A stretch of DNA of 42,757 nt, from NCBI GenBank assembly GCA_032718475.1, contig JAUCBJ010001615.1, positions 1 through 42,757 on the forward strand. The letters run 5' to 3'. A program made the position numbers and the translations under genes. Below the pieces are notes generated by a model, which had not been told where the DNA came from, searched no databases, and saw nothing but the letters and a program-made list of their open reading frames with translations. Source of the stretch: Nemertoderma westbladi (lineage: Eukaryota; Animalia; Xenacoelomorpha). Shown piece by piece: positions 5,694-41,711 of the stretch (positions are counted from its first letter, which is position 1; each line of letters begins with the position of its first letter).

Positions 5694-5968
5694 GAATGGG
5701 AGAATCTTTTAGGCTCGTTAAGCCAAGGAATACCTGTTCACCACCATGGGTGATCTTCTACAGGAAACCCTTCCACTCTGTTTCCCAAGTTGCCTTGGTT
5801 CCCATTTATCGACCACTGAAGGATGAAAGCCGGGGTTGGGCTAGGCTGCAGCATTTAAAGCACTGTGCCCAAACAGTGCTGCCCCATCTAGGGATCGAAC
5901 CCGGGCTCCCTAATCGGAAGCACAGTAATGTCACCACTAGACCAAGCTGCTGCTTGGTCTAGTGATAT
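5694..5968 (-). mobile_element. tRNA-derived SINE with 14-bp target-site duplication
   Basis: Minus strand shows A-box-like TGGTCTAGTGG, B-box GGTTCGATCCC and a central TTTCATCCTTCAGTGGTCGATAAATG motif similar to conserved metazoan SINE bodies. Direct repeat AAATCGTCATAAAT at 5680-5693 and 5969-5982. Confidence 0.8.
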
Positions 5969-7072: not shown

Positions 7073-7222
7073 CTCGTTCTTTACAAACTTCTCCAACATG
7101 TTAGTGGAAAGCTCCATAAGGAACTCGTTGTGATTATTCTGAAGGTCACGCAGTTGAGACATATAGCCCTGACAATTCTCAACGAATGTTGAAACCAAGT
7201 CCGCCAAGTTGCGTTCAAATTC
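7073..7222 (-). CDS. DRC3: DRC3/LRRC48 exon (EFERNLADLVSTFVENCQGYMSQLRDLQNNHNEFLMELSTNMLEKFVKNE)
   Basis: ttgttag| acceptor, |gtcagt donor, 150 nt, phase 0-0; matches DRC3 FERN..D.V..F.EN.Q..M.Q.RDL.N.H.E. Confidence 0.92.
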
Positions 7223-7247
7223 CTAACAATAAGATAGATATCACATA

Positions 7248-9890
7248 TTATTGTGTCCTAACGAATAATGAAGGTTAACTAACTTTTATTGTGTCCTAAC
7301 GAATAAAGAAGGTTAACTAACTTTTATTGTGTCCTAACGAATAAAGAAGGTTAACTAACTTTTATTGTGTCCTAACGAATGAAGTAGGTTATCTAACTTT
7401 TATTGTGTCCTACCAAATAAAGAAGGTTAACTAACTTTTATTGTGTCCTAACGAATAAAGAAGGTTAACTAACTTTTATTGTGTCCTAACGAATGAAGTA
7501 GGTTATCTAACTTTTATTGTGTCCTACCAAATAAAGAAGGTTAACTAACTTTTATTGTGTCCTAACGAATGAAGTAGGTTATCTAACTTTTATTGTGTCC
7601 TACCAAATAAAGAAGGTTAACTAACTTTTATTGTGTCCTAACGAATAAAGAAAGTTAACTAACTTTTATTGTGTCCTAACGAATAAATAGTGTATATTAA
7701 CTGATTAAGTGTTATTGTGTTATCTAACTTTTATTGTGTCCTACCAAATAAAGAAGGTTTAAACTAACATTTATTGTGTCCTAACGAATAAAGAAAGTTA
7801 ACTAATTTTTATTGTGTCCTAACGAATAAAGAAGGTTAACTAACTTTTATTGTGTCCTAACGAATAAAGAGGGTGAATTAACTGACTAAGTGTTATTGTG
7901 TTAACTAACTTGTATTGTGTCCTAACGAATAAAGAAGGTTAACTAACTTTTATTGTGTCCTAACGAATAAAGAGGGTGAATTAACTGACTAAGTGTTATT
8001 GTGTTAACTAACTTGTATTGTGTCCTAACGAATAAAGAAGGATAACTAACTTTTATTGTGTCCTAACGAATAAAGAGGGTGAATTAACTGACTAAGTGTT
8101 ATTGTGTTAACTAACTTTTATTGTGTCCTAACGAATAAAGAAGGTTAACTAACTTTTATTGTGTCCTAACGAATGAAGTAGGTTATCTAACTTTTATTGT
8201 GTCCTACCAAATAAAGAAGGTTAACTAACTTTTATTGTGTCCTAACGAATAAAGAAAGTTAACTAACTTTTATTGTGTCCTAACGAATAAATAGTGTATA
8301 TTAACTGATTAAGTGTTATTGTGTTATCTAACTTTTATTGTGTCCTACCAAATAAAGAAGGTTAACTAACATTTATTGTGTCCTAACGAATAAAGAAAGT
8401 TAACTAATTTTTATTGTGTCCTAACGAATAAAGAAGGTTAACTAACTTTTATTGTGTCCTAACGAATAAAGAGGGTGAATTAACTGACTAAGTGTTATTG
8501 TGTTAACTAACTTGCATTGTGTCCTAACGAATAAAGAAGGTTAACTAACTTTTATTGTGTCCTAACGAATAAAGAGGGTGAATTAACTGACTAAGTGTTA
8601 TTGTGTTAACTAACTTGTATTGTGTCCTAACGAATAAAGAAGGATAACTAACTTTTATTGTGTCCTAACGAATAAAGAGGGTGAATTAACTGACTAAGTG
8701 TTATTGTGTTAACTAACTTGTATTGTGTCCTAACGAATAAAGAAGGTTAACTAACTCTTATTGTGTCCTAACGAAAAAAGGGGGAATATTAACTGATTAA
8801 GTGTTATTGTGTTAACTAACTTTTATTGTGTCGTACCAATTAAAGAAGGTTAACTAACTTTTATTGTGTCCTAACGAATAAAGAGGGTGAATCAACTGAC
8901 TAAGTGTTATTGTGTTAACTAGCGTTTATTCTGTCGTAACGAATAAAGAAAGTTAACTAACTTTTATTCTGACCTAACAAATAAAGATGGTTAACTAAAT
9001 TTATTGTGTTCTAACGAATAAAGAGGGTAAATAAACTGACTAAGTGTTATTGTGTTAACTAACCTTTATTCTGTTGTAACGAATAAAGAAAGTTAACTAA
9101 CTTTTATTCTGACCTAACAAATAAAGATGGTTAACTAAATTTATTGTGTCCTAACGAATAAAGTGGGTATATTAACTGATTAAGTGTTATTGTGTTAACT
9201 AACTTTTATTGTGTCGTACCAATTAAAGAAGGTTAACTAACTTTTATTGTGTCCTAACGTATAATGAAGGTTAACTAACGTTTATTCTGTCGTAACGAAT
9301 AAAGAAAGTTAACTAACTTTTATTCTGACCTAACAAATAAAGAGGGTTAACTAACTTTATTGTGTCCTAACGAATAAAGAGGGTATATTAACTGATTAAG
9401 TGTTATTGTGTTAACTAACTTTTATTGTGTCGTAACAAATAAAGAAGGTTAACTAACTTTTATTGTGTCGTAACGAATAAAGAGGGTGAATTAACTGACT
9501 AAGTGTTATTGTGTTAACTACCTTTTATTGTGTCCTAACGAATAAAGAAGGTTAACTAACTTTTATTGTGTCCTAACGAAAAAAGAGGGTATATTAACTG
9601 ATTAAGTGTTATTGTGTTAACTAACTTTTATTGTGTCGTACCAATTAAAGAAGGTTAACTAACTTTTATTGTGTCCTAACGAATAATGAGGGTAAATCAA
9701 CTGACTAAGTGTTATTGTGTTAACTAACGTTTATTCTGTCGTAACGAATAAAGAAAGTTAACTAACTTTATTCTGACCTAACAAATAAAGAGGGTTAACT
9801 AACTTTATTGTGACCTAACAAATAAAGAGGGTTAACTAACTTTATTGTGACCTAACAAATAAAGAAGGTTAACTAACTTTTATTGTGTCC
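7248..9890 (-). repeat. 38-bp (plus ~65-bp variant) intronic satellite; minus-strand unit GACACAATAAAA GTTAGTTAACCTTCTTTATTCGTTAG
   Basis: Period 38 (TCCTAACG at 7256 and 7294); 65-bp variants carry a TAAGTGTTATTGTG insert. Fills nearly all of DRC3 intron 7223-9877 and overlaps the exon end 9878-9889. Confidence 0.97.
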
Positions 9891-10000
9891 TCCAATTGAT
9901 CAACAAGTTCCAATTCGCAACCCATCATCTGCAGGTTCATAGTCCGAACCGCATCTTTGTAATTCTTGCATATTTTATCGATTTCCTTTTGATCAGATGT
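9878..10000 (-). CDS. DRC3: DRC3/LRRC48 exon (TSDQKEIDKICKNYKDAVRTMNLQMMGCELELVDQLEDTIK)
   Basis: ttacag| acceptor, |gttagt donor, 123 nt, phase 0-0; M..E..LV.QLE.TI motif joins in frame to EFERN. Confidence 0.9.
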
Positions 10001-15204: not shown

Positions 15205-15332
15205 CACGAACACACTCACATGGGTTAGATCTAAGGAACACATACATATGGCTGTATGGGTTAGATCCTATAGAACACACTCACATGGGCTAGATCCTAT
15301 TGAACACACTCACCTGGGTTAGATCTAAGAAC
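15205..15332 (-). repeat. 3-4 decayed ~30-bp tandem copies of the DRC3 exon end + donor (TAGATCTAACCCAG|GTGAGTGTGTTC)
   Basis: Plus strand GAACACACTCACATGGGTTAGATCTA-like units at ~15208, 15255, 15273 and 15302. Confidence 0.75.
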
Positions 15333-17860: not shown

Positions 17861-17984
17861 AGGCGGCAATGTGAATGAAAATGTCGGAGTTACAATCTTG
17901 ATACATAATTAAGTAAAATGATTTACTGAATTTAAGTACTTGTGTAGGCCTATAGATACTAGATTACTTCTTGAATTCCTACTC

Positions 17985-20900
17985 TTTGAACACCTCCAGT
18001 GGTTCCTCCCTACCTGTATAGATATCCTATTACGCATTTCATTGTTTGAACTCCTCCAATGTGGTTCCTCCCTACCTGTATAGATATACTAGTACACTTT
18101 TCTTTGAACTCCTCCTGTGTAGTTCCTCCCTACCTGTATAGATACTAGTACACTTTTCTTTGAAGGCCTCCAGTGGTTCCTCCCTACCGGTATAGATATA
18201 CTAGTACACTTTTCTTTGATCTCCTCCAGTGGTTCCTCCCTACATGTATAGATATACTAGTACACTTTTCTTTGACCTCCTCCAGTGGTTCCTCCCTACC
18301 TGTATAGATATACTAGTACACTTTTCTTTGATCTCCTCCAGTGGTTCCTCCCTACCTGTATAGATATACTAGTACACTTTTCTTTGAACTCCTCCTGTGT
18401 AGTTCCTCCCTACCTGTATAGATACTAGTACACTTTTCTTTGAAGGCCTCCAGTGGTTCCTCCCTACCGGTATAGATATACTAGTACACTTTTCTTTGAC
18501 CTCCTCCAGTGGTCCCTCCCTACCTGTATATATATACTAGTACACTTTTCTTTGATCTCCTCCAGTGGTTCCTCCCTACCTGTATAGATATACTAGTACA
18601 CTTTTCTTTGACCTCCTCCAGTGGTTCCTCCCTACCTGTATAGATATACTAGTACACTTTTCTTTGAACTCCTCCAGTGGTTCCTCCCTACCTGTATAGA
18701 TATACTAGTACACTTTTCTTTGAACTCCTCCTGTGTAGTTCCTCCCTACCTGTATAGATACTAGTACACTTTTCTTTGAAGGCCTCCAGTGGTTGCTCCC
18801 TACCGGTATAGATATACTAGTACACTTTTCTTTGATCTCCTCCAGTGGTTCCTCCCTACCTGTATAGATATACTAGTACACTTTTCTTTGACCTCCTCCA
18901 GTGGTCCCTCCCTACCTGTATAGATATACTAGTACACTTTTCTTTGATCTCCTCCAGTGGTTCCTCCCTACCTGTATAGATATACTAGTACACTTTTCTT
19001 TGAACTCCTCCAGTGGTTGCTCCCTACCGGTATAGATATACTAGTAGTGTGGATGAGTTTCTTTGAACTCATCCAGTGGTTCCTTCCTACCTGTATAGAT
19101 ATACTAGTACACTTTTCTTTGAAGGCCTCCAGTGGTTCCTCCCTACCGGTATAGATATACTAGTACACTTTTCTTTGAACTCCTCCAGTGGTTCCTCCCT
19201 ACCTGTATAGATATACTAGTACACTTTTCTTTGAACTCCTCCAGTGGTTCCTCCCTATCGGTATAGATATACTAGTACACTTTTCTTTGACCGCCTCCAG
19301 TGGTTCCTCCCTACCGGTATAGATATACTAGTACACTTTTCTTTGACCTCCTCCAGTGGTCCCTCCCTACCTGTATAGATATACTAGTACACTTTTCTTT
19401 GATCTCCTCCAGTGGTTCCTCCCTACCTGTATAGATATACTAGTACACTTTTCTTTGAACTCCTCCAGTGGTCCCTCCCTACCTGTATAGATATACTAGT
19501 ACACTTTTCTTTGAACTCCTCCAGTGGTTGCTCCCTACCGGTATAGATATACTAGTAGTGTGGATGAGTTTCTTTGAACTCATCCAGTGGTTCCTTCCTA
19601 CCTGTATAGATATACTAGTACACTTTTCTTTGAAGGCCTCCAGTGGTTCCTCCCTACCGGTATAGATATACTAGTACACTTTTCTTTGAACTCCTCCAGT
19701 GGTTCCTTCCTACCTGTATAGATATACTAGTACACTTTTCTTTGAAGGCCTCCAGTGGTTCCTCCCTACCGGTATAGATATACTAGTACACTTTTCTTTG
19801 AACTCCTCCAGTGGTTCCTCCCTATCGGTATAGATATACTAGTACACTTTTCTTTGAACTCATCCAGTGGTTCCTTCCTACCTGTATAGATATACTAGTA
19901 CACTTTTCTTTGAAGGCCTCCAGTGGTTCCTCCCTACCGGTATAGATATACTAGTACACTTTTCTTTGACCGCCTCCAGTGGTTCCTCCCTACCGGTATA
20001 GATATACTAGTACACTTTTCTTTGACCTCCTCCAGTGGTCCCTCCCTACCTGTATAGATATACTAGTACACTTTTCTTTGACCTCCTCCAGTGGTTCTTC
20101 CCTACCGGTATAGATATCCTAGTACACTTTTCTTTGACCTCCTCCAGTGGTTCCTCCCTACCTGTATAGATATACTAGTACACTTTTCTTTGACTTCCTC
20201 CAGTGGTTCCTCCCTACCGGTATAGATATACTAGTACACTTTTCTTTGAACTCCTCCAGTGGTTCCTCCCTACCTGTATAGATACTAGTACACATTTCTT
20301 TGAACTCCTCCAGTGGTTCCTCCCTACCGGTATAGATATACTAGTACACTTTTCTTTGAACTCCTCCAGTGGTTCCTCCCTACCTGTATAGATACTTGTA
20401 CACCTTTCTTTGAACTCCTCCAGTGGTTCCTTCCTACCTGTATAGATATACTAGTACACTTTTCTTTGACCTCCTCCAGTGGTTCCTCCCTACCTGTATA
20501 GATATACTATTACACTTTTCTTTGAAGGCCTCCAGTGGTTCCTCCCTACCTGTATAGATATACTAGTACACTTTTCTTTGACCTGCTCCAGTGGTTCCTC
20601 CCTACCTGTATAGATACTAGTACACTTTTCTTTGAACTCCTCCAGTGGTCCCTCCCTACCTGTATAGATATACTAGTACATTTTTCTTTGACCTCCTCCA
20701 GTGGTTCTTCCCTACCGGTATAGATATCCTAGTACACCTTTCTTTGAACTCCTCCAGTGGTTCCTCCCTACCTGTATAGATATACTAGTACACTTTTCTT
20801 TGACCTTCTCCAGTGGTTTCTCCCTACCTGTATACACTAGATATACTAGTACACTTTTCTTTGATCTCCTCCAGTGGTTCCTCCCACCTGTATAGATATA

Positions 20901-23900
20901 CTAGTGCACTTTTCTTTGACCTCCTCCAGTGGTTTCTCCCTACCTGTATAGATATACTAGTACACTTTTCTTTGACCTCCTCCAGTGGTTTCTCCCTACC
21001 TGTATAGATAGATATACTAGTACACTTTTCTTTGACCTGCTCCAGTGGTTCCTCCCTACCTGTATAGATACTAGTACACTTTTCTTTGAACTCCTCCAGT
21101 GGTCCCTCCCTACCGGTATAGATATACTAGTACACTTTTCTTTGAACTCCTCCAGTGGTTTCTCCCTACCTGTATAGATATACTAGTACACTTTTCTTTG
21201 AACTCCTCCAGTGGTTTCTCCCTACCTGTATAGATATACTAGTACACTTTTCTTTGAACTCCTCCAGTGGTTTCTCCCTACCTGTATAGATATACTAGTA
21301 CACTTTTCTTTGAACTCCTCCAGTGGTTTCTCCCTACCTGTATAGATATACTAGTACACTTTTCTTTGAAGGCCTCCAGTGGTTCCTCCCTACCTGTACA
21401 CTTTTCTTTGATCTCCTCCAGTGGTTTCTCCCTACCTGTATAGATAGATATACTAAGTACACTTTTCTTTGACCTCCTCCAGTGGTTTCTCCCTACCTGT
21501 ATAGATATACTAGTACACTTTTCTTTGAACTCCTCCAGTGGTTCCTCCCTACCTGTATAGATATACTACAGTGTTACACTTTTCTTTGAAGGCCTCCAGT
21601 GGTTCCTCCATGCCTGTATAGATATACTAGTACACTTTTCTTTGACCTCCTCCAGTGGTTTCTCCCTACCTGTATAGATATACTAGTACACTTTTCTTTG
21701 ACCTCCTCCAGTGGTTTCTCCCTACCTGTATAGATATACTAGTACACTTTTCTTTGAAGGCCTCCAGTGGTTCCTCCCTACCTGTATAGATATACTAGTA
21801 CACTTTTCTTTGACCTCCTCCAGTGGTTTCTCCCTACCTGTATAGATAGTACACTTTTCTTTGACCTCCTCCAGTGGTTTCTCCCTACCTGTATATATAT
21901 ACTAGTACACTTTTCTTTGACCTCCTCCAGTGGTTTCTCCCTACCTGTATAGATATACTAGTACACTTTTTTTGACCTCCTCCAGTGGTTTCTCCCTACC
22001 TGTATAGATATACTAGTACACTTTTCTTTGAAGGCCTCCAGTGGTTCCTCCCTACCTGTATAGATATACTAGTACACTTTTCTTTGACCTCCTCCAGTGG
22101 TTTCTCCCTACCTGTATAGATAGTACACTTTTCTTTGACCTCCTCCAGTGGTTTCTCCCTACCTGTATAGATATACTAGTACACTTTTCTTTGAACTCCT
22201 CCAGTGGTTTCTCCCTACCTGTATAGATAGATATACTAAGTACACTTTTCTTTGACCTCCTCCAGTGGTTTCTCCCTACCTGTATAGATATACTAGTACA
22301 CTTTTCTTTGATCTCCTCCAGTGGTTCCTCCCACCTGTATAGATATACTAGTACACTTTTCTTTGAACTCCTCCAGTGGTTCCTCCCTACCTGTATATAT
22401 ATACTACAGTATTACACTTTTCTTTGAAGGCCTCCAGTGGTTCCTCCATGCCTGTATAGATATACTAGTACACTTTTCGTTGACCTCCTCCAGTGGTTTC
22501 TCCCTACCTGTATAGATATACTAGTACACTTTTCTTTGACCTCCTCCAGTGGTTTCTCCCTACCTGTATAGATATACTAGTACACTTTTCTTTGACCTCC
22601 TCCAGTGGTTTCTCCCTACCTGTATAGATATACTAGTACACTTTTCTTTGACCTGCTCCAGTGGTTCCTCCCTACCTGTATAGATATACTAGTACACTTT
22701 TCTTTGACCTCCTCCAGTGGTTTCTCCCTACCTGTATAGATATACTAGTACACTTTTCTTTGACCTCCTCCAGTGGTTTCTCCCTACCTGTATAGATAGA
22801 TATACTAGTACACTTTTCTTTGAACTCATCCAGTGGTTCCTTCCTACCTGTATAGATAGATATACTAAGTACACTTTTCTTTGACCTCCTCCAGTGGTCC
22901 CTCCCTACCTGTATAGATATACTAGTACACTTTTCTTTGAAGGCCTCCAGTGGTTCCTCCCTACCGGTATAGATATACTAGTACACTTTTCTTTGACCTC
23001 CTCCAGTGGTTCCTCCCTACCTGTATAGATATACTATTACACTTTTCTTTGACCTCCTCCAGTGGTTTCTCCCTACCTGTATAGATATACTAGTACACTT
23101 TTCTTTGACCTCCTCCAGTGGTTTCTCCCTACCTGTATAGATAGATATACTAGTACACTTTTCTTTGAACTCATCCAGTGGTTCCTTCCTACCTGTATAG
23201 ATAGATGTACTAGTACACTTTTCTTTGACCTCCTCCAGTGGTTCCTCCCTACCTGTATAGATATACTATTACACTTTTCTTTGACCTCCTCCAGTGGTTT
23301 CTCCCTACCTGTATAGATATACTAGTACACTTTTCTTTGACCTCCTCCAGTGGTTTCTCCCTACCTGTATAGATATACTAGTACACTTTTCTTTGACCTC
23401 CTCCAGTGGTTTCTCCCTACCTGTATAGATATACTAGTACACTTTTCTTTGACCTCCTCCAGTGGTTTCTCCCTACCTGTATAGATATACTAGTACACTT
23501 TTCTTTGAAGGCCTCCAGTGGTTCCTCCCTACCTGTATAGATATACTAGTACACTTTTCTTTGACCTCCTCCAGTGGTTTCTCCCTACCTGTATAGATAT
23601 ACTAGTACACTTTTCTTTGACCTCCTCCAGTGGTTTCTCCCTACCTGTATAGATATACTAGTACACTTTTCTTTGACCTCCTCCAGTGGTTTCTCCCTAC
23701 CTGTATAGATATACTAGTACACTTTTCTTTGAAGGCCTCCAGTGGTTCCTCCCTACCTGTATAGATATACTAGTACACTTTTCTTTGACCTCCTCCAGTG
23801 GTTTCTCCCTACCTGTATAGATATACTAGTACACTTTTCTTTGACCTCCTCCAGTGGTTCCTCCCTACCTGTATAGATATACTAGTGCACTTTTCTTTGA

Positions 23901-26900
23901 AGGCCTCCAGTGGTTTCTCCCTACCTGTATAGATAGTACACTTTTCTTTGACCTCCTCCAGTGGTTTCTCCCTACCTGTATAGATATACTAGTACACTTT
24001 TCTTTGACCTCCTCCAGTGGTTCCTCCCTACCTGTATAGATATACTAGTGCACTTTTCTTTGAAGGCCTCCAGTGGTTTCTCCCTACCTGTATAGATAGT
24101 ACACTTTTCTTTGACCTCCTCCAGTGGTTTCTCCCTACCTGTATAGATATACTAGTACACTTTTCTTTGACCTCCTCCAGTGGTTCCTCCCTACCTGTAT
24201 AGATATACTAGTGCACTTTTCTTTGAAGGCCTCCAGTGGTTTCTCCCTACCTGTATAGATAGTACACTTTTCTTTGACCTCCTCCAGTGGTTTCTCCCTA
24301 CCTGTATAGATATACTAGTACACTTTTCTTTGACCTCCTCCAGTGGTTCCTCCCTACCTGTATAGATATACTAGTGCACTTTTCTTTGAAGGCCTCCAGT
24401 GGTTCCTCCCTACCTGTATAGATATACTAGTACACTTTTCTTTGAACTCCTCTAGTGGTTCCTCCCTACCTGTATAGATATACTAGTACACTTTTCTTTG
24501 ACCTGCTCCAGTGGTTCCTCCCTACCTGTATAGATATACTAGTACACTTTTCTTTGAACTCATCCAGTGGTTCCTTCCTGCCTGTATAGATAGATATACT
24601 AGTACACTTTTCTTTGAATTCTTCCAGTGGTTCCTCCCTACCTGTATAGATACTAGTACACTTTTCTTTGAACTCCTCCAGTGGTTCCTTCCTACCTGTA
24701 TAGATAGATATACTAGTACACATTTCTTTGACCTCCTCCAGTGGTTTCTCCCTACCTGTATAGATACTAGTACACTTTTCTTTGAACTCCTCCAGTGGTT
24801 GCTCCCTACCGGTATAGATATAGTAGTAGTGTGGATGAGTTTCTTTGAACTCATCCAGTGGTTCCTTCCTACCTGTATAGATAGATATACTAGTACACTT
24901 TTCTTTGAAGGCCTCCAGTGGTTCCTCCCTACCGGTATAGATATACTAGTACACTTTTCTTTGACCTCCTCCAGTGGTTTCTCCCTACCGGTATAGATAT
25001 ACTAGTACACTTTTCTTTGAAGGCCTCTAGTGGTTCCTCCCTACCTGTATAGATATACTAGTACACCTTTCTTTGAACTCATCCAGTGGTTCCTCCCTAC
25101 CTGTATAGATATACTAGTACACTTTTCTTTGAAGGCCTCTAGTGGTTCCTCCCTACCTGTATAGATATACTAGTACACCTTTCTTTGAACTCATCCAGTG
25201 GTTCCTCCCTACCTGTATAGATAGATATACTAGTACACTTTTCTTTGAACTCCTCCAGTGGTTGCTCCCTACCGGTATAGATATACTAGTAGTGTGGATG
25301 AGTTTCTTTGAACTCATCCAGTGGTTCCTTCCTACCTGTATAGATAGATATACTAGTACACTTTTCTTTGAAGGCCTCCAGTGGTTCCTCCCTACCTGTA
25401 TAGATATACTAGTACACTTTTCTTTGATCTCCTCCAGTGGTTCCTCCCTACCTGTATAGATATACTAGTACACTTTTCTTTGATCTCCTCCAGTGGTTCC
25501 TCCCTACCTGTATAGATATACTAGTACACTTTTCTTTGACCTCCTCCAGTGGTTTCTCCCTACCGGTATAGATATACTAGTACACTTTTCTTTGAAGGCC
25601 TCTAGTGGTTCCTCCCTACCTGTATAGATATACTAGTACACCTTTCTTTGAACTCATCCAGTGGTTCCTCCCTACCTGTATAGATATACTAGTACACTTT
25701 TCTTTGAAGGCCTCTAGTGGTTCCTCCCTACCTGTATAGATATACTAGTACACCTTTCTTTGAACTCATCCAGTGGTTCCTCCCTACCTGTATAGATAGA
25801 TATACTAGTACACTTTTCTTTGAACTCCTCCAGTGGTTGCTCCCTACCGGTATAGATATACTAGTAGTGTGGATGAGTTTCTTTGAACTCATCCAGTGGT
25901 TCCTTCCTACCTGTATAGATAGATATACTAGTACACTTTTCTTTGAAGGCCTCCAGTGGTTCCTCCCTACCTGTATAGATATACTAGTACACTTTTCTTT
26001 GACCTCCTCCAGTGGTTCCTCCTTACCTGTATAGATATACTAGTACACTTTTCTTTGAAGGCCTCCAGTGGTTCCTCCCTACCTGTATAGATATACTAGT
26101 ACACTTTTCTTTGAAGGTCTCCAGTGGTTCCTCCCTACCTGTATAGATATACTAGTACACTTTTCTTTGACCTCCTCCAGTGGTTCCTCCCTACCGGTAT
26201 AGATATACTAGTACACTTTTCTTTGAAGGCCTCCAGTGGTTCCTCCTTACCTGTATAGATATACTAGTACACTTTTCTTTGAACTCCTCCAGTGGTTCCT
26301 CCCTACCGATATAGATATACTAGTACACTTTTCTTTGAAGGCCTCCAGTGGTTCCTCCCTACCTGTATAGATATACTAGTACACTTTTCTTTGACCTCCT
26401 CCAGTGGTTCCTCCCTACCTGTATAGATACTAGTACACTTTTCTTTGAACTCATCCAGTGGTTCCTTCCTGCCTGTATAGATATACTAGTACACGTTTCT
26501 TTGACCTCCTCAAGTGGTTCCTTCCTGCCTGTATAGATATACTAGTACACGTTTCTTTGACCTCCTCAAGTGGTTCCTTCCTGCCTGTATAGATATACTA
26601 GTACACTTTTCTTTGAAGGCCTCCAGTGGTTCCTCCCTACCGGTATAGATATACTAGTACACGTTTCTTTGACCTCCTCAAGTGGTTCCTTCCTGCCTGT
26701 ATAGATATACTAGTACACTTTTCTTTGAAGGCCTCCAGTGGTTCCTCCCTACCGGTATAGATATACTAGTACACGTTTCTTTGACCTCCTCAAGTGGTTC
26801 CTTCCTGCCTGTATAGATATACTAGTACACTTTTCTTTGAATTCCTCCAGTGGTTCCTCCCTACCTGTATAGATATACTAGTACACTTTTCTTTGACCTC

Positions 26901-29900
26901 CTCCAGTGGTTTCTCCCTACCTGTATAGATATACTAGTACACTTTTCTTTGAAGGCCTCCAGTGGTTCCTCCCTACCGGTATAGATATACTAGTACACGT
27001 TTCTTTGACCTCCTCAAGTGGTTCCTTCCTGCCTGTATAGATATACTAGTACACGTTTCTTTGAGCTCCTCAAGTGGTTCCTTCCTGCCTGTATAGATAT
27101 ACTAGTACACTTTTCTTTGAAGGCCTCCAGTGGTTCCTCCCTACCTGTATAGATATACTAGTACACGTTTCTTTGACCTCCTCAAGTGGTTCCTCCCTAC
27201 CGGTATAGATATACTAGTACACTTTTCTTTGACCTCCTCCAGTGGTTCCTCCCTACCGGTATAGATATACTAGTACACGTTTCTTTGACCTCCTCAAGTG
27301 GTTCCTTCCTGCCTGTATAGATATACTAGTACACGTTTCTTTGACCTCCTCAAGTGGTTCCTTCCTGCCTGTATAGATATACTAGTACACTTTTCTTTGA
27401 ACTCATCCAGTGGTTCCTTCCTACCTGTATAGATACTAGTACACTTTTCTTTGAACTCCTCCAGTGGTCCCTCCCTACCTGTATAGATAGATGTACTAGT
27501 ACACTTTTCTTTGAACTCCTCCAGTGGTTCCTCCCTACCTGTATAGATACTTGTACACTTTTCTTAGAACTCCTCCAGTGGTTCCTTCCTACCTGTATAG
27601 ATATACTAGTACACTTTTCTTTGACCTCCTCTAGTGGTTCCTCCGTACCTGTATAGATATACTAGTACACTTTTCTTTGACCTCCTCCAGTGGTTCCTCC
27701 CTACCTGTATAGATATACTCGTACACTTTTCTTTGAAGGCCTCCAGTGGTTCCTCCTTACCTGTATAGATATACTAGTACACTTTTCTTTGAACTCATCC
27801 AGTGGTTCCTTCCTACCTGTATAGATACTAGTACACTTTTCTTAGAACTCCTCCAGTGGTTCCTCCCTACCGGTATAGATATACTAGTACACTTTTCTTT
27901 GAACTCATCCAGTGGTTCCTTCCTACCTGTATAGATACTAGTACACTTTTCTTTGACCTCCTCCAGTGGTCCCTCCCTACCTGTATAGATAGATGTACTA
28001 GTACACTTTTCTTTGAACTCCTCCAGTGGTTCCTCCCTACCTGTATAGATACTTGTACACTTTTCTTAGAACTCCTCCAGTGGTTCCTTCCTACCTGTAT
28101 AGATATACTAGTACACTTTTCTTTGAACTCCTCCAGTGGTTCCTCCCTACCTATATAGATATACTAGTACACTTTTCTTTGACCTCCTCCAGTGGTTTCT
28201 CCCTACCTGTATAGATATACTAGTACACTTTTCTTTGACCTCCTCCAGTGGTTCCTCCCTACCTATATAGATATACTAAGTACACTTTTCTTTGACCTCC
28301 TCCAGTGGTTCCTCCCTACCTGTATAGATACCAGTACACTTTTCTTTGAACTCCTCTAGTGGTTCCTCCCTACCTGTATAGATATACTAGTACACTTTTC
28401 TTAGAACTCCTCCAGTGGTTCCTCCCTACCGGTATAGATATACTAGTACACTTTTCTTTGAACTCCTCCAGTGGTTCCTCCCTACCTATATAGATATACT
28501 AAGTACACTTTTCTTTGACCTCCTCCAGTGGTTCCTCCCTACCTGTATAGATACCAGTACACTTTTCTTTGAACTCCTCTAGTGGTTCCTCCCTACCTGT
28601 ATAGATATACTAGTACACTTTTCTTTGAACTCCTCCAGTGGTTCCTCCCTATCGGTATAGATATACTAGTACACTTTTCTTTGACCTCCTCCAGTGGTTT
28701 CTCCCTACCTGTATAGATACTAGTACACTTTTCTTTGAATTCCTCCAGTGGTTCCTCCCTACCTGTATAGATATACTAGTACACTTTTCTTTGAACTCCT
28801 CCAGTGGTTCCTCCCTATCGGTATAGATATACTAGTACACTTTTCTTTGAACTCCTCCAGTGGTTCCTCCCTACCTGTATAGATACTTGTACACTTCTTA
28901 GAACTCCTCCAGTGGTTCCTCCCTACCTATATAGATATACTAGTACACTTTTCTTTGACCTGCTCCAGTGGTTCCTCCCTACCTGTATAGATACCAGTAC
29001 ACTTTTCTTTGAACTCCTCTAGTGGTTCCTCCCTACCTGTATAGATATACTAGTACACTTTTCTTTGAACTCCTCCAGTGGTTCCTCCCTATCGGTATAG
29101 ATATACTAGTACACTTTTCTTTGAACTCCTCCAGTGGTTCCTCCCTACCTGTATAGATACTTGTACACTTTTCTTAGAACTCCTCCAGTGGTTCCTTCCT
29201 ACCTGTATAGATATACTAGTACACTTTTCTTTGAACTCCTCCAGTGGTTCCTCCCTACCTATATAGATATACTAGTACACATTTCTTTGATCTCCTCCAG
29301 TGGTTCCTCCCTCCCTGTATAGATATACTAGTACACTTTTCTTTGATCTCCTCCAGTGGTTCCTCCCTACCTGTATAGATACTTGTACACTTTTCTTTGA
29401 ACTCCTCCAGTGGTTCCTCCCTACCTGTATAGATATACTACAGTATTACACTTTTCTTTGAAGGCCTCCAGTGGTTCCTCCCTACCTGTATAGATATACT
29501 AGTACACTTTTCTTTGAACTCATCCAGTGGTTCCTTCCTGCCTGTATAGATAGATATACTAGTACACTTTTCTTTGAATTCTTCCAGTGGTTCCTCCCTA
29601 CCTGTATAGATACTAGTACACTTTTCTTTGAACTCCTCCAGTGGTTCCTTCCTACCTGTATAGATAGATATACTAGTACACATTTCTTTGACCTCCTCCA
29701 GTGGTTTCTCCCTACCTGTATAGATACTAGTACACTTTTCTTTGAACTCCTCCAGTGGTTGCTCCCTACCGGTATAGATATAGTAGTAGTGTGGATGAGT
29801 TTCTTTGAACTCATCCAGTGGTTCCTTCCTACCTGTATAGATAGATATACTAGTACACTTTTCTTTGAAGGCCTCCAGTGGTTCCTCCCTACCGGTATAG

Positions 29901-32900
29901 ATATACTAGTACACTTTTCTTTGACCTCCTCCAGTGGTTTCTCCCTACCGGTATAGATATACTAGTACACTTTTCTTTGAAGGCCTCTAGTGGTTCCTCC
30001 CTACCTGTATAGATATACTAGTACACCTTTCTTTGAACTCATCCAGTGGTTCCTCCCTACCTGTATAGATATACTAGTACACTTTTCTTTGAAGGCCTCT
30101 AGTGGTTCCTCCCTACCTGTATAGATATACTAGTACACCTTTCTTTGAACTCATCCAGTGGTTCCTCCCTACCTGTATAGATAGATATACTAGTACACTT
30201 TTCTTTGAACTCCTCCAGTGGTTGCTCCCTACCGGTATAGATATACTAGTAGTGTGGATGAGTTTCTTTGAACTCATCCAGTGGTTCCTTCCTACCTGTA
30301 TAGATAGATATACTAGTACACTTTTCTTTGAAGGCCTCCAGTGGTTCCTCCCTACCTGTATAGATATACTAGTACACTTTTCTTTGATCTCCTCCAGTGG
30401 TTCCTCCCTACCTGTATAGATATACTAGTACACTTTTCTTTGATCTCCTCCAGTGGTTCCTCCCTACCTGTATAGATATACTAGTACACTTTTCTTTGAC
30501 CTCCTCCAGTGGTTTCTCCCTACCGGTATAGATATACTAGTACACTTTTCTTTGAAGGCCTCTAGTGGTTCCTCCCTACCTGTATAGATATACTAGTACA
30601 CCTTTCTTTGAACTCATCCAGTGGTTCCTCCCTACCTGTATAGATATACTAGTACACTTTTCTTTGAAGGCCTCTAGTGGTTCCTCCCTACCTGTATAGA
30701 TATACTAGTACACCTTTCTTTGAACTCATCCAGTGGTTCCTCCCTACCTGTATAGATAGATATACTAGTACACTTTTCTTTGAACTCCTCCAGTGGTTGC
30801 TCCCTACCGGTATAGATATACTAGTAGTGTGGATGAGTTTCTTTGAACTCATCCAGTGGTTCCTTCCTACCTGTATAGATAGATATACTAGTACACTTTT
30901 CTTTGAAGGCCTCCAGTGGTTCCTCCCTACCTGTATAGATATACTAGTACACTTTTCTTTGACCTCCTCCAGTGGTTCCTCCTTACCTGTATAGATATAC
31001 TAGTACACTTTTCTTTGAAGGCCTCCAGTGGTTCCTCCCTACCTGTATAGATATACTAGTACACTTTTCTTTGAAGGTCTCCAGTGGTTCCTCCCTACCT
31101 GTATAGATATACTAGTACACTTTTCTTTGACCTCCTCCAGTGGTTCCTCCCTACCGGTATAGATATACTAGTACACTTTTCTTTGAAGGCCTCCAGTGGT
31201 TCCTCCTTACCTGTATAGATATACTAGTACACTTTTCTTTGAACTCCTCCAGTGGTTCCTCCCTACCGATATAGATATACTAGTACACTTTTCTTTGAAG
31301 GCCTCCAGTGGTTCCTCCCTACCTGTATAGATATACTAGTACACTTTTCTTTGACCTCCTCCAGTGGTTCCTCCCTACCTGTATAGATACTAGTACACTT
31401 TTCTTTGAACTCATCCAGTGGTTCCTTCCTGCCTGTATAGATATACTAGTACACGTTTCTTTGACCTCCTCAAGTGGTTCCTTCCTGCCTGTATAGATAT
31501 ACTAGTACACGTTTCTTTGACCTCCTCAAGTGGTTCCTTCCTGCCTGTATAGATATACTAGTACACTTTTCTTTGAAGGCCTCCAGTGGTTCCTCCCTAC
31601 CGGTATAGATATACTAGTACACGTTTCTTTGACCTCCTCAAGTGGTTCCTTCCTGCCTGTATAGATATACTAGTACACTTTTCTTTGAAGGCCTCCAGTG
31701 GTTCCTCCCTACCGGTATAGATATACTAGTACACGTTTCTTTGACCTCCTCAAGTGGTTCCTTCCTGCCTGTATAGATATACTAGTACACTTTTCTTTGA
31801 ATTCCTCCAGTGGTTCCTCCCTACCTGTATAGATATACTAGTACACTTTTCTTTGACCTCCTCCAGTGGTTTCTCCCTACCTGTATAGATATACTAGTAC
31901 ACTTTTCTTTGAAGGCCTCCAGTGGTTCCTCCCTACCGGTATAGATATACTAGTACACGTTTCTTTGACCTCCTCAAGTGGTTCCTTCCTGCCTGTATAG
32001 ATATACTAGTACACGTTTCTTTGACCTCCTCAAGTGGTTCCTTCCTGCCTGTATAGATATACTAGTACACTTTTCTTTGAAGGCCTCCAGTGGTTCCTCC
32101 CTACCTGTATAGATATACTAGTACACGTTTCTTTGACCTCCTCAAGTGGTTCCTCCCTACCGGTATAGATATACTAGTACACTTTTCTTTGACCTCCTCC
32201 AGTGGTTCCTCCCTACCGGTATAGATATACTAGTACACGTTTCTTTGACCTCCTCAAGTGGTTCCTTCCTGCCTGTATAGATATACTAGTACACTTTTCT
32301 TTGACCTCCTCAAGTGGTTCCTCCCTACCTGTATAGATACCAGTACACTTTTCTTTGAACTCCTCTAGTGGTTCCTCCCTACCTGTATAGATATACTAGT
32401 ACACTTTTCTTTGAACTCATCCAGTGGTTCCTTCCTACCTGTATAGATACTAGTACACTTTTCTTTGAACTCCTCCAGTGGTCCCTCCCTACCTGTATAG
32501 ATAGATGTACTAGTACACTTTTCTTTGAACTCCTCCAGTGGTTCCTCCCTACCTGTATAGATACTTGTACACTTTTCTTAGAACTCCTCCAGTGGTTCCT
32601 TCCTACCTGTATAGATATACTAGTACACTTTTCTTTGACCTCCTCTAGTGGTTCCTCCGTACCTGTATAGATATACTAGTACACTTTTCTTTGACCTCCT
32701 CCAGTGGTTCCTCCCTACCTGTATAGATATACTCGTACACTTTTCTTTGAAGGCCTCCAGTGGTTCCTCCTTACCTGTATAGATATACTAGTACACTTTT
32801 CTTTGAACTCATCCAGTGGTTCCTTCCTACCTGTATAGATACTAGTACACTTTTCTTAGAACTCCTCCAGTGGTTCCTCCCTACCGGTATAGATATACTA

Positions 32901-35900
32901 GTACACTTTTCTTTGAACTCATCCAGTGGTTCCTTCCTACCTGTATAGATACTAGTACACTTTTCTTTGACCTCCTCCAGTGGTCCCTCCCTACCTGTAT
33001 AGATAGATGTACTAGTACACTTTTCTTTGAACTCCTCCAGTGGTTCCTCCCTACCTGTATAGATACTTGTACACTTTTCTTAGAACTCCTCCAGTGGTTC
33101 CTTCCTACCTGTATAGATATACTAGTACACTTTTCTTTGAACTCCTCCAGTGGTTCCTCCCTACCTGTATAGATATACTAGTACACTTTTCTTTGACCTC
33201 CTCCAGTGGTTTCTCCCTACCTGTATAGATATACTAGTACACTTTTCTTTGACCTCCTCCAGTGGTTCCTCCCTACCTATATAGATATACTAAGTACACT
33301 TTTCTTTGACCTCCTCCAGTGGTTCCTCCCTACCTGTATAGATACCAGTACACTTTTCTTTGAACTCCTCTAGTGGTTCCTCCCTACCTGTATAGATATA
33401 CTAGTACACTTTTCTTAGAACTCCTCCAGTGGTTCCTCCCTACCGGTATAGATATACTAGTACACTTTTCTTTGAACTCCTCCAGTGGTTCCTCCCTACC
33501 TATATAGATATACTAAGTACACTTTTCTTTGACCTCCTCCAGTGGTTCCTCCCTACCTGTATAGATACCAGTACACTTTTCTTTGAACTCCTCTAGTGGT
33601 TCCTCCCTACCTGTATAGATATACTAGTACACTTTTCTTTGAACTCCTCCAGTGGTTCCTCCCTATCGGTATAGATATACTAGTACACTTTTCTTTGACC
33701 TCCTCCAGTGGTTTCTCCCTACCTGTATAGATACTAGTACACTTTTCTTTGAATTCCTCCAGTGGTTCCTCCCTACCTGTATAGATATACTAGTACACTT
33801 TTCTTTGAACTCCTCCAGTGGTTCCTCCCTATCGGTATAGATATACTAGTACACTTTTCTTTGAACTCCTCCAGTGGTTCCTCCCTACCTGTATAGATAC
33901 TTGTACACTTCTTAGAACTCCTCCAGTGGTTCCTCCCTACCTATATAGATATACTAGTACACTTTTCTTTGACCTGCTCCAGTGGTTCCTCCCTACCTGT
34001 ATAGATACCAGTACACTTTTCTTTGAACTCCTCTAGTGGTTCCTCCCTACCTGTATAGATATACTAGTACACTTTTCTTTGAACTCCTCCAGTGGTTCCT
34101 CCCTATCGGTATAGATATACTAGTACACTTTTCTTTGAACTCCTCCAGTGGTTCCTCCCTACCTGTATAGATACTTGTACACTTTTCTTAGAACTCCTCC
34201 AGTGGTTCCTTCCTACCTGTATAGATATACTAGTACACTTTTCTTTGAACTCCTCCAGTGGTTCCTCCCTACCTATATAGATATACTAGTACACATTTCT
34301 TTGATCTCCTCCAGTGGTTCCTCCCTCCCTGTATAGATTTACTAGTACACTTTTCTTTGATCTCCTCCAGTGGTTCCTCCCTACCTGTATAGATACTTGT
34401 ACACTTTTCTTTGAACTCCTCCAGTGGTTCCTCCCTACCTGTATAGATATACTACAGTATTACACTTTTCTTTGAAGGCCTCCAGTGGTTCCTCCCTACC
34501 TGTATAGATATACTAAGTACACTTTTCTTTGACCTCCTCGAGTGGTTCCTCCCTACCTGTATAGATATACTAGTACACTTTTCTTTGAAGGCCTCCAGTG
34601 GTTCCTCCATGCCTGTATAGATATACTAGTACACTTTTCTTTGAAGGCCTCCAGTGGTTCCTCCCTACCTGTATAGATATACTACAGTATTACACTTTTC
34701 TTTGAAGGCCTCCAGTGGTTCCTCCCTACCTGTATAGATATACTAAGTACACTTTTCTTTGACCTCCTCAAGTGGTTCCTCCCTACCTGTATAGATATAC
34801 TAGTACACTTTTTTTTGAAGGCCTCCAGTGGTTCCTCCCTAGCTGTATAGATATACTAGTACACTTTTCTTTGACCTCCTCAAGTGGTTCCTCCCTACCT
34901 GTATAGATATACTAGTACACTTTTCTTTGACCTCCTCAAGTGGTTCCTCCCTACCTGTATAGATACTAGTACACTTTTCTTTGACTTCCTCAAGTGGTTC
35001 CTCCCTACCTGTATAGATATACTAAGTACACTTTTCTTTGAAGGCCTCCAGTGGTTCCTCCCTACCTGTATAGATATACTAGTACACTTTTCTTTGAAGG
35101 CCTCCAGTGGTTCCTCCCTACCTGTATAGATATACTAGTACACTTTTCTTTGAAGGCCTCCTGTGTAGTTCCTCCCTACCTGTATAGATATACTAGTACA
35201 CTTTTCTTTGAAGGCCTCCAGTGGTTCCTCCATGCCTGTATAGATATACTAAGTACACTTTTCTTTGACCTCCTCAAGTGGTTCCTCCCTACCTGTATAG
35301 ATATACTAGTACACTTTTCTTTGACCTCCTCAAGTGGTTCCTCCCTACCTGTATAGATATACTAGTACACTTTTCTTTGACCTCCTCAAGTGGTTCCTCC
35401 CTACCTGTATAGATACTAGTACACTTTTCTTTGACTTCCTCAAGTAGTTCCTCCCTACCTGTATAGATATACTAGTACACTTTTCTTTGACCTCCTCAAG
35501 TGGTTCCTCCCTACCTGTATAGATACTAGTACACTTTTCTTTGACTTCCTCAAGTGGTCCCTCCCTACCTGTATAGATATACTTGTACACTTTTCTTTGA
35601 ACTCCTCCAGTGGTTCCTCCCTACCTGTATAGATACTAGTACACTTTTCTTTGACTTCCTCAAGTGGTTCCTCCCTACCTGTATAGATATACTAAGTACA
35701 CTTTTCTTTGAAGGCCTCCAGTGGTTCCTCCCTACCTGTATAGATATACTAGTACACTTTTCTTTGAAGGCCTCCAGTGGTTCCTCCCTACCTGTATAGA
35801 TATACTACAGTATTACACTTTTCTTTGAAGGCCTCCAGTGGTTCCTCCCTACCTGTATAGATATACTAAGTACACTTTTCTTTGACCTCCTCAAGTGGTT

Positions 35901-38900
35901 CCTCCCTACCTGTATAGATATACTAGTACACTTTTCTTTGAAGGCCTCCAGTGGTTCCTCCCTAGCTGTATAGATATACTAGTACACTTTTCTTTGACCT
36001 CCTCAAGTGGTTCCTCCCTACCTGTATAGATATACTAGTACACTTTTCTTTGACCTCCTCAAGTGGTTCCTCCCTACCTGTATAGATACTAGTACACTTT
36101 TCTTTGACTTCCTCAAGTGGTTCCTCCCTACCTGTATAGATATACTAAGTACACTTTTCTTTGAAGGCCTCCAGTGGTTCCTCCCTACCTGTATAGATAT
36201 ACTAGTACACTTTTCTTTGAAGGCCTCCAGTGGTTCCTCCCTACCTGTATAGATATACTAAGTACACTTTTCTTTGACCTCCTCAAGTGGTTCCTCCCTA
36301 CCTGTATAGATATACTAGTACACTTTTCTTTGAAGGCCTCCAGTGGTTCCTCCCTACCTGTATAGATATACTAGTACACTTTTCTTTGACCTCCTCAAGT
36401 GGTTCCTCCCTACCTGTATAGATATACTAGTACACTTTTCTTTGACCTCCTCAAGTGGTTCCTCCCTACCTGTATAGATACTAGTACACTTTTCTTTGAC
36501 TTCCTCAAGTGGTTCCTCCCTACCTGTATAGATATACTAGTACACTTTTCTTTGAAGGCCTCCAGTGGTTCCTCCCTACCTGTATAGATATACTAGTACA
36601 CTTTTCTTTGAAGGCCTCCAGTGGTTCCTCCCTACCTGTATAGATATACTAGTACACTTTTCTTTGAAGGCCTCCAGTGGTTCCTCCCTACCTGTATAGA
36701 TATACTAGTACACTTTTCTTTGAAGGCCTCCAGTGGTTCCTCCCTACCTGTATAGATATACTAGTACACTTTTCTTTGAAGGCCTCCAGTGGTTCCTCCC
36801 TACCTGTATAGATATACTAGTACACTTTTCTTTGAAGGCCTCCAGTGGTTCCTCCCTACCTGTATAGATATACTAGTACACTTTTCTTTGAAGGCCTCCA
36901 GTGGTTCCTCCCTACCTGTATAGATATACTAGTACACTTTTCTTTGAAGGCCTCCAGTGGTTCCTCCCTACCTGTATAGATATACTAGTACACTTTTCTT
37001 TGAAGGCCTCCAGTGGTTCCTCCCTACCTGTATAGATATACTAGTACACTTTTCTTTGAAGGCCTCCAGTGGTTCCTCCCTACCTGTATAGATATACTAG
37101 TACACTTTTCTTTGAAGGCCTCCAGTGGTTCCTCCCTACCTGTATAGATATACTAGTACACTTTTCTTTGACCTCCTCAAGTGGTTCCTCCCTACCTGTA
37201 TAGATACTAGTACACTTTTCTTTGACTTCCTCAAGTGGTTCCTCCCTACCTGTATAGATATACTAGTACACTTTTCTTTGAAGGCCTCCAGTGGTTCCTC
37301 CCTACCTGTATAGATATACTAGTACACTTTTCTTTGAAGGCCTCCAGTGGTTCCTCCCTACCTGTATAGATATACTAGTACACTTTTCTTTGACCTCCTC
37401 AAGTGGTTCCTCCCTACCTGTATAGATATACTAGTACACTTTTCTTTGAAGGCCTCCAGTGGTTCCTCCCTACCTGTATAGATATACTAGTACACTTTTC
37501 TTTGACCTCCTCAAGTGGTTCCTCCCTACCTGTATAGATATACTAGTACACTTTTCTTTGACCTCCTCAAGTGGTTCCTCCCTACCTGTATAGATACTAG
37601 TACACTTTTCTTTGACTTCCTCAAGTGGTTCCTCCCTACCTGTATAGATATACTAAGTACACTTTTCTTTGAAGGCCTCCAGTGGTTCCTCCCTACCTGT
37701 ATAGATATACTAGTACACTTTTCTTTGAAGGCCTCCAGTGGTTCCTCCCTACCTGTATAGATATACTAGTACACTTTTCTTTGAAGGCCTCCAGTGGTTC
37801 CTCCCTACCTGTATAGATATACTAGTACACTTTTCTTTGAAGGCCTCCAGTGGTTCCTCCCTACCTGTATAGATATACTAGTACACTTTTCTTTGAAGGC
37901 CTCCAGTGGTTCCTCCCTACCTGTATAGATATACTAGTACACTTTTCTTTGAAGGCCTCCAGTGGTTCCTCCCTACCTGTATAGATATACTAGTACACTT
38001 TTCTTTGAAGGCCTCCAGTGGTTCCTCCCTACCTGTATAGATATACTAGTACACTTTTCTTTGAAGGCCTCCAGTGGTTCCTCCCTACCTGTATAGATAT
38101 ACTAGTACACTTTTCTTTGAAGGCCTCCAGTGGTTCCTCCCTACCTGTATAGATATACTAGTACACTTTTCTTTGAAGGCCTCCAGTGGTTCCTCCCTAC
38201 CTGTATAGATATACTAGTACACTTTTCTTTGAAGGCCTCCAGTGGTTCCTCCCTACCTGTATAGATATACTAGTACACTTTTCTTTGAAGGCCTCCAGTG
38301 GTTCCTCCCTACCTGTATAGATATACTAGTACACTTTTCTTTGAAGGCCTCCAGTGGTTCCTCCCTACCTGTATAGATATACTAGTACACTTTTCTTTGA
38401 AGGCCTCCAGTGGTTCCTCCCTACCTGTATAGATATACTAGTACACTTTTCTTTGAAGGCCTCCAGTGGTTCCTCCCTACCTGTATAGATATACTAGTAC
38501 ACTTTTCTTTGACCGGCCTCCAGTGGTTCCTCCCTACCTGTATAGATATACTAGTACACTTTTCTTTGAAGGCCTCCAGTGGTTCCTCCCTACCTGTATA
38601 GATATACTAGTACACTTTTCTTTGAAGGCCTCCAGTGGTTCCTCCCTACCTGTATAGATATACTAGTACACTTTTCTTTGAAGGCCTCCAGTGGTTCCTC
38701 CCTACCTGTATAGATATACTAGTACACTTTTCTTTGAAGGCCTCCAGTGGTTCCTCCCTACCTGTATAGATATACTAGTACACTTTTCTTTGAAGGCCTC
38801 CAGTGGTTCCTCCCTACCTGTATAGATATACTAGTACACTTTTCTTTGAAGGCCTCCAGTGGTTCCTCCCTACCTGTATAGATATACTAGTACACTTTTC

Positions 38901-40889: not shown

Positions 40890-41012
40890 TGGTAACTGGT
40901 TGAATTTCCTCCCATCTGCATCCTCGCTATACAGCTCGTCATAAACATACGATCCGTTTAGTTTTTCAACGTAAGCTTCGATGTAAAGCTCCTGTTGTTT
41001 CGTATATTCATC
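40833..41012 (-). CDS. DRC3: DRC3/LRRC48 exon (DEYTKQQELYIEAYVEKLNGSYVYDELYSEDADGRKFNQLPGMEEPLEAFKEKCTSISIQ)
   Basis: tttctag| acceptor, CAG|gtaggg donor, 180 nt, phase 0-0; A.VE.LNGS...D..Y.ED..G.....LPG motif; joins in frame to LFEYGLKQ. Confidence 0.92.
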
Positions 41013-41483: not shown

Positions 41484-41711
41484 CTGGAAATATAATATAC
41501 AAACTACAGTATAGGTACGGAGGATGTGGTGCTATAGTGTAGTTCCTGTATTCGGCCAATATCGGCCGAAGAAATATTTACTTTTTTCCATAGTGGAATT
41601 GATGTAAAAAGAAAAAAAAAAGAGTAATTTAACAGGCAATGGGGTTTGGCATAATCATACTGCAAATATCATATATTGCAACAGAAGCTGAGCAAAAATT
41701 GGTTAGGGCTA

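Follow-up and report, generated by a model that had tools for sequence, protein, structure and literature searches.

A minisatellite of exon-tail and mini-intron units fills one intron of a DRC3 gene in a likely acoelomorph

The intron between exons E and F of the DRC3 gene on this contig is built of tandem units which each carry a donor-like word, an acceptor-like word and a short in-frame piece of the preceding exon, and it raises the question of how such a unit came to be amplified, and whether its many apparent splice sites are used or are simply removed with the rest of the intron. The preliminary description of this DNA offered three readings of the repeat: the expansion of a tiny ancestral intron together with 12 nucleotides of exon, an intermediate in the sliding of an intron, or a source of isoforms with an inserted DTIK.

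The DRC3 gene and the array in its E-F intron

The window, which is the whole stretch of 42,757 nt that was analysed, holds the 3' part of a cilia gene, that for DRC3 (LRRC48, dynein regulatory complex subunit 3) on the minus strand, from 42504 to 4975. Its eight exons, A to H, are even in size (122, 154, 180, 162, 123, 150, 153 and 126 nt, a range of 122-180 nt), seven of the eight junctions are in phase 0, and the joined exons form a single open frame of 389 codons and a stop. The seven GT-AG introns, from A-B to G-H, measure 899, 317, 25,357, 5,313, 2,655, 1,663 and 156 nt, the last being the shortest. Exon E (9878..10000, minus strand, 123 nt, TSDQK...QLEDTIK) is an open frame with GT-AG junctions which aligns to residues 341-381 of the homologous protein P0001, and exon F (7073..7222, minus strand, 150 nt, EFERN...KFVKNE), identified as DRC3 by homologue search, aligns to residues 382-431; joined directly, the two exons give an open frame that is colinear with the homologues. 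Gene names are based on named homologues, with named DRC3 proteins returned by the searches with exons F and G, and on solved DRC3 structures which match P0001. A tree of 31 rows places the protein as sister group to four acoel-like ones, Symsagittifera included, with support of 98/98, and lends no support to a ctenophore as host; the placement of the host as an acoelomorph is only likely, because the branch is fairly long and the rows include no named nemertodermatid, Xenoturbella, flatworm or tunicate.

The 2,655-nt E-F intron (7223..9877, minus strand) is occupied from donor to acceptor by an array of 58 units, known from one haplotype. The intron begins at 9877 with the donor GTTAGT and finishes at 7223 with the acceptor TTATTGTTAG, after which exon F opens directly with EFERN. 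As had been noted at the outset, the basic 38-mer consists of the last 12 nt of exon E (9889-9878, encoding DTIK) followed by the first 26 nt of the intron, which run from GT to AG; this reading is borne out by the full array, in which the exact 38-mer occurs nine times. Tandem Repeats Finder scores range from several hundred to more than 1,000, which excludes chance, and three motifs of the unit are confined to the array when the whole window is searched. The unit measures 38 nt in 37 cases, 37 nt in three, 40 nt in one, 65 nt in 13 and 64 nt in three, so that 16 units have a longer, 64-65-nt form, and the last unit measures 61 nt; the GT..AG-like part is correspondingly 26 nt long in most units (41), but 53 nt in 16 and 28 nt in one. 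The dozens of frame-preserving 12-nt pseudo-microexons that the preliminary description had expected are present: 39 of the 57 internal exon-like pieces have AG, 12 nt and GT intact and in frame, and these encode DTIK (28), DTIQ (four), VRIK (three), DTIN (two), DTIR (one) and DTMQ (one). The branch-like motif TTAAC occupies positions 6-10 of the 26-mer, immediately next to the donor, which puts its putative branch A at a distance of only 8 nt from the unit's start; at such close range donor recognition and branch recognition would overlap at the spliceosome.

There are 30 distinct unit sequences, arranged in higher-order blocks, and the intact pieces are unevenly distributed among them. The 5' part of the array (units 1-22, 8859..9877, minus strand) is more diverged, and its acceptors have often changed from AG to AC; only seven intact pieces fall within units 1-23, where identity to the consensus 38-mer is mostly 0.87-0.95. 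In the 3' part (units 24-57, 7284..8820, minus strand), which contains the higher-order repeats, 32 of 34 pseudo-microexons are intact and identity is 0.92-1.0. In units 1-4 (9877-9729), which adjoin the real donor, no usable in-frame acceptor is present, and the first intact unit lies 202 nt downstream; this could reflect selection against their use by intron definition, or they could simply be the older end of the array. In six units (1, 2, 3, 12, 17 and 20) the acceptor-like AG stands directly before GT, and four of these read GTCAG, as in the real donor of exon F, GTCAGT. The last unit (7223..7283, minus strand, 61 nt) combines a mini-intron of 26 nt with a stretch that matches the exon tail over 10 nt but has no donor in register, followed by 25 nt that end in the real acceptor; it is likely a diverged unit. 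The splice sites of the units show no sign of being spared, with the reservation that the copies are not independent: the acceptor G is altered in 9 of 57 units, which places it with the most variable positions, and six units have a change in the G or T of the donor.

Origin of the unit and the position of the intron

The word AGGA is found at position -14 of exon E, where it is one of only two in the 123 nt of the exon, and it recurs across the boundary at the real acceptor. A duplication between the AGGA at -14 and the one at the acceptor would copy exactly the exon tail and the whole intron. Such an event predicts that the real acceptor should resemble the unit, a likeness claimed in the preliminary description, and here the result depends on how the comparison is made. 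In a global alignment of the last 25 nt of the intron to the unit, the observed score is reached by 746 and 250 of 5,000 shuffles, so that the likeness is weak. It is clearer when the alignment is anchored at the 3' end, a test chosen after the weak first one, in which all 14 variants of the 26-mer were used for scoring and the comparison 26-mers were taken from the non-repeat part of the window: the score of the last 26 nt of the intron is reached by only three (mean score) or six (best score) of 1,411 AG-ending 26-mers, and by one or three of 170 AT-rich 26-mers ending in YAG. The real E-F acceptor also outscores the seven other acceptors of DRC3 in its likeness to the unit (with the acceptor of exon B set 2 nt off). 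With AGGA at both ends of the unit and a real acceptor that resembles a diverged unit, it is likely that the exon tail and the whole intron were duplicated together.

Two other sources for the 26-nt part were rejected. It could be decayed exon E sequence, as in a plain donor-side repeat, but the exon E sequence upstream of the tail resembles it no better than chance (174-186 of 1,411 comparison 26-mers reach the score). Intron gain by tandem exon duplication (the Rogers model) fails as well, because the 26-nt part resembles neither the upstream exon nor the start of exon F, for which 300 of 300 shuffles reach the score. The 53-nt form is also unlikely to be the ancestral intron, since the insert that distinguishes the 65-nt unit corresponds to the exon-donor junction (in each of 10 variants the match is reached by 0-3 of 1,000 shuffles), which makes the 65-nt form a likely fusion of two units. 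Its second half reads as a 33-34-nt version of the mini-intron, and the 53-nt form may thus keep a longer form of it.

These results leave the proposed expansion of a tiny intron together with 12 exon nucleotides, by way of AG-G microhomology, standing in part: AGGA is present at both ends and the acceptor resembles the unit, but an ancestral size of 26 nt does not follow, because unit length is fluid and the starting intron need not have measured 26 nt. Among 51 animal genomes, introns below 30 nt are reported only from myxobolids and Dicyema, in a paper whose main text makes no mention of acoels (PMC13644364). A starting intron of 26 nt would thus lie below the size spliced in known free-living animals, and shrinkage after the duplication must be assumed.

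The position of the intron in other animals was obtained from a scan of metagenome contigs, which yielded 41 homologous loci. Eight of these, which match only from residue 21 of exon F and several of which have an intron at codon 401-402, were left out of the count for the E-F junction. In the 33 loci counted, some of which are near-duplicates (L008/L009, L016/L018 and L038/L039), an acceptor AG lies exactly 12 nt upstream of the EFERN codons in 20, the sequence is uninterrupted in 13, and no intron ends at EFERN. Between the two positions weighed in the preliminary description, QLE|DTIK and DTIK|EFE, all 20 intron-bearing loci thus have the first. Where both sides are resolved (13 loci), the intron lies at codon 377, phase 0, of P0001, in every case after GAG or GAA, and this position is supported by read-through ORFs and by vertebrate skip isoforms. 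The E-F intron of the window lies at codon 381, phase 0, and the acceptor of its repeat unit, AG|GAC, reproduces the conserved boundary to the base.

The homologous loci have conserved introns at codons 53, 92, 148, 197, 237, about 275 (poorly resolved), 333, 377, about 401 and 442, with a further one at 468 in four loci, while the junctions of the window's gene lie at 134, 174, 226, 286, 340, 381, 431 and 482. None of the seven junctions resolved by script is common to the window and the 41 loci, and the same holds for the junction at 134. The offsets from the nearest conserved site are -14, -22, -11, +11, +7, +4, -11 and +14 codons, and for eight randomly placed positions at least one within four codons of a conserved site would be expected with P of 0.76-0.85. 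In the acoel-like relatives, P0214 diverges from P0215 right after residue 134, and P0002 joins P0215 at 135 and runs for 390 residues to the end, 378 of them identical, with no break at 377 or 381. P0214 and P0002, which come from contigs of equal length, look like ORF calls that flank one intron at codon 134; if this is what they are, then the acoel-like genes have the window's intron at 134 and none at 377 or 381. These protein sequences suggest an acoel-like DRC3 with a single intron, at codon 134, which is common to the window and absent from the other animals sampled. Ancestral introns have apparently been lost, and regained at new sites, in the lineage of the window.

An account by intron sliding would hold that the old QLE|DTIK intron and the next four codons were duplicated, and that the first copy of the intron and the last exon piece were then lost, which moves the intron 12 nt downstream. 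Its strongest point is the exact agreement between AG|GAC in the unit and the conserved boundary, combined with a shift (377+0 to 381+0) which is a multiple of three and shorter than 32 nt; the acceptor lies 12 nt upstream in all 20 intron-bearing loci, with codon 377, phase 0, in the 13 resolved on both sides, and the cases described in Drosophila include one slide of 12 nt (PMC2891723). However, the conserved introns of codons 148-442 are all missing from the window's gene, whose eight junctions are scattered around them; the acoel-like ORFs, unbroken from residue 135 to the end, suggest an intron-less sister state at both sites, which would run against the first of the Lehmann 2010 criteria for sliding (PMC2891723); three steps are needed where one would do; and the boundary match is accounted for by the nearest AGGA. 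The agreement with the orthologues at 12 nt upstream thus falls short of establishing sliding, because all eight junctions are non-conserved and the relatives apparently lack an intron at either site, and we regard this part of the preliminary description as distinctly improbable. Similar offsets of intron positions have been taken as loss and gain in PMC3902484. It is also conceivable, and in our estimate still unlikely, that in this acoelomorph-like lineage the ancestral introns were wiped out and replaced by newborn introns of 25-35 nt which grow, and sometimes move, by tandem boundary amplification, the array being a fossil of one such newborn intron. Introns of the 25-35-nt class are so far known only in parasitic animals; were this account true, the register of the array on the ancestral site would show arrays moving introns by whole codons.

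The explanation we prefer, and hold to be probable, is that the array is a 58-unit minisatellite of exon tail plus mini-intron, likely founded by one slippage or crossover event at AGGA, enlarged by unequal exchange and likely still spliced out whole. An intron at DTIK|EFE that was short and specific to the lineage would have been duplicated with its exon tail by slippage or unequal crossover through the two AGGA words, one near the end of exon E and one at the acceptor, and further unequal exchange would have enlarged the array. Once the intron was long, its internal copies would have been free to shrink, to fuse (the 65-nt form being a fusion of two units) and to be homogenised. The 39 in-frame pseudo-microexons would be a by-product, because the duplicated exon piece happens to consist of four whole codons between phase-0 boundaries. 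Introns favour AG|G sites (PMC3488318), so that the nearest microhomology available is likewise found at the old intron site, and the acceptor of the unit would fall on the ancestral animal site because this is the nearest upstream AG|GA, not because an old intron slid. In favour of this explanation are the filling of the E-F intron from end to end, the AGGA words, and the copies of exon boundaries in four introns of the gene; against it are the base-for-base agreement of the unit's acceptor with the conserved intron site, which sliding predicts likewise, and the weakness of the acceptor likeness in the first test.

Known boundary minisatellites and the splicing of the array

The array is a splice-boundary minisatellite, or “mirage”, with three of the features that define the class: its unit spans a real boundary, many units keep the splice dinucleotides (39 of 57), and the terminal units are diverged while the internal ones are homogenised. 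Mirages have been described in amphioxus, in the globins BflGb6 and BflGb9, Adh3, troponin C and PGBD5, where RT-PCR suggests normal splicing (PMC3087553, PMC3902484). The amphioxus arrays described there likewise consist of tandem copies of an exon-intron boundary inside an intron, with diverged terminal units and unit lengths (10-160 nt) that include those found here; several arrays can occur in one gene, and they have been proposed as a route to new intron positions. However, each unit described in amphioxus spans one boundary, whereas the E-F unit holds a donor and an acceptor together with 12 nt of exon in frame, and the E-F array fills its whole intron and sits in a likely acoelomorph. 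Human genes provide donor-spanning VNTRs, in F7 IVS7 (37 bp, 5-9 copies), 6-16, CBS IVS13, LMNB2 and PDGF intron 4 (PMC1557585). These have a similar unit length, a first copy that spans the donor and many identical pseudo-donors, but they have fewer copies, and their donors are described as competing for a single acceptor, while the E-F array repeats acceptors too.

Three further systems resemble parts of the array. The near intron pairs of Drosophila (PMC2891723) share with it an ancient and a novel position less than 32 nt apart and in frame (here 12 nt), but here an intron-less state seems to be present in relatives, and the tandem-duplication route calls for an intron made up wholly of exon sequence, which the E-F intron is not. 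The ultra-short introns of myxobolid myxozoans and Dicyema, with medians of 22-27 nt (PMC13644364), are like the 26-nt GT-AG part of the unit, but belong to compact genomes of parasites, while the seven DRC3 introns of the window range from 156 to 25,357 nt. SRRM3/4-dependent (eMIC) microexons (10.1101/2024.09.17.613571) can be compared with the 12-nt, frame-preserving, GT-AG-flanked pieces; unlike these microexons, the pieces have no UGC before their acceptors, where a UGC between branch point and AG is usual although not strictly needed, are not conserved in homologues and occur in dozens of identical copies. No published description of a unit holding a whole intron together with an exon tail was found in a search of titles and the beginnings of abstracts that covered few subscription journals. 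What is new in comparison with known boundary minisatellites is that a single unit holds both splice sites along with an exon piece that preserves the frame.

That the array is neutral and spliced as one intron, between its first donor and its last acceptor, is most likely, judging by these analogies. By comparison with the lancelet mirages and the human F7 repeat, the outermost sites would be expected to win, possibly with leakage at a low level. The analogy is imperfect, because no described precedent has both splice sites of one intron inside the unit, and the human cases do not all agree: only the first donor is used in F7, LMNB2 and PDGF, but in 6-16 and CBS one or two downstream pseudo-donors are used as well, which counts against our explanation (PMC1557585).

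Alternatively, the array could serve as a working source of isoforms with an inserted DTIK: the donor of exon E would join an internal acceptor, an internal donor would join exon F, and the C-terminal region of DRC3 would gain four residues. There are 39 in-frame candidates for such use, 28 of them exact, and the donor after each is the same as the real one or almost so. Coiled coils tolerate an insertion of four residues as a stutter. Because the flanking introns could extend over several units, no excision of 26 nt would be required, and a low level of DTIK insertion is conceivable. We nevertheless think the alternative quite improbable. A pattern spanning the E-F junction matched 24 of 106 non-ELP3 proteins, and neither these nor the 13 continuous loci have an insertion at the junction, the spacing being the same in all 24 proteins and all 13 loci; the splice sites are not visibly spared (the acceptor G is altered in 9 of 57 units, the copies not being independent); and the precedents mostly splice normally. 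The 2,655-nt intron contains only one TGC, which lies inside an exon-like piece, whereas 74-79% of SRRM3/4 microexons have one, although UGC is not strictly required for their inclusion (10.1101/2024.09.17.613571). Removal of the intron piece by piece, with the six TTAG|GTCA units near the donor acting as recursive (ratchet) sites, is very improbable: an acceptor directly before a donor-like word, in four cases so like the real donor of exon F, is what such sites would show, but a single A>T change copied by the array accounts for all six, unit 1 would still need an excision of 26 nt, and recursive sites are superfluous for an intron of 2.7 kb in a gene which also has one of 25 kb. It is scarcely credible, finally, that the array was inflated or stitched together by the assembler. 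Its copy number does come from one assembly, but the 30 distinct unit sequences, the polarity of their divergence, the higher-order blocks and the clean open exons on both sides all speak against an artefact.

On its most likely reading, the array provides a clean natural test case for the choice of splice sites, in which an in-frame 12-nt piece is flanked by dozens of acceptors and by 58 donors that are nearly identical, and it extends boundary minisatellites to a unit with both splice sites and to a likely acoelomorph.

Boundary duplications elsewhere in the gene, and neighbouring features

Copies of exon boundaries are found in four of the seven DRC3 introns, namely A-B, C-D, D-E and E-F, at scores reached by none of 300 shuffles. 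The B-C intron is borderline (8 and 14 of 300 shuffles), and the same shuffle test found no boundary copies in the F-G and G-H introns. The largest case lies at the start of the C-D intron, where a donor-spanning array (17983..40891, minus strand, 23 kb) repeats a 56-nt unit about 408 times; the unit consists of the last ~51 nt of exon C plus GTAGG, and 304 copies keep the donor word. At the start of the D-E intron there are three to four decayed copies of a donor-spanning ~29-nt repeat made of the end of exon D and its donor (15215..15332, minus strand). In the A-B intron the duplicate is on the acceptor side (41484..41550, minus strand): the first ~31 nt of exon B follow a CAG about 60 nt upstream of the real acceptor (0 of 300 shuffles). 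That all DRC3 introns were slid downstream by the lengths of their repeats was considered and rejected, because the offsets go both ways.

This wider pattern, with eight junctions at positions absent from the animals sampled and boundary duplications in four of seven introns, may outweigh the array itself in importance. If relatives were to have a single intron of 25-35 nt, or the intron 12 nt upstream, this would inform ideas about the gain, lengthening and movement of introns.

Several other features of the window were recorded. In the 56-nt array of the C-D intron, the exon word CAGGCATGGAGG is similar to the junction word CAGGTAGGGAGG, which is likely a breakpoint homology. The same intron contains, at 15545-17860, about 99 copies of a 24-nt unit which is not derived from any DRC3 exon; its consensus has a donor-like GTAAGT on the gene strand, and the word CAGTAAGT occurs 87 times. 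Nested antisense in the D-E intron is an intact, intron-less ELP3 gene (13370-15046, plus strand, 558 aa), about 80% identical to fish ELP3, the best matches in the homologue search being at ~80-81% and mostly from fishes, which says little about the host. Two stretches, at ~5800-5950 and ~12950-13150, resemble tRNA-derived SINEs by eye; ARAGORN reports no tRNA gene. Downstream of DRC3, a 24-nt tandem repeat of about 12 copies (100-386) carries a repetitive plus-strand ORF of 107 aa which is probably non-coding, and the region at ~1370-2060 contains, as seen by eye, two diverged copies of a ~200-nt stretch in opposite orientations (~1400-1600 and ~1850-2060), which are possibly the ends of a DNA element.
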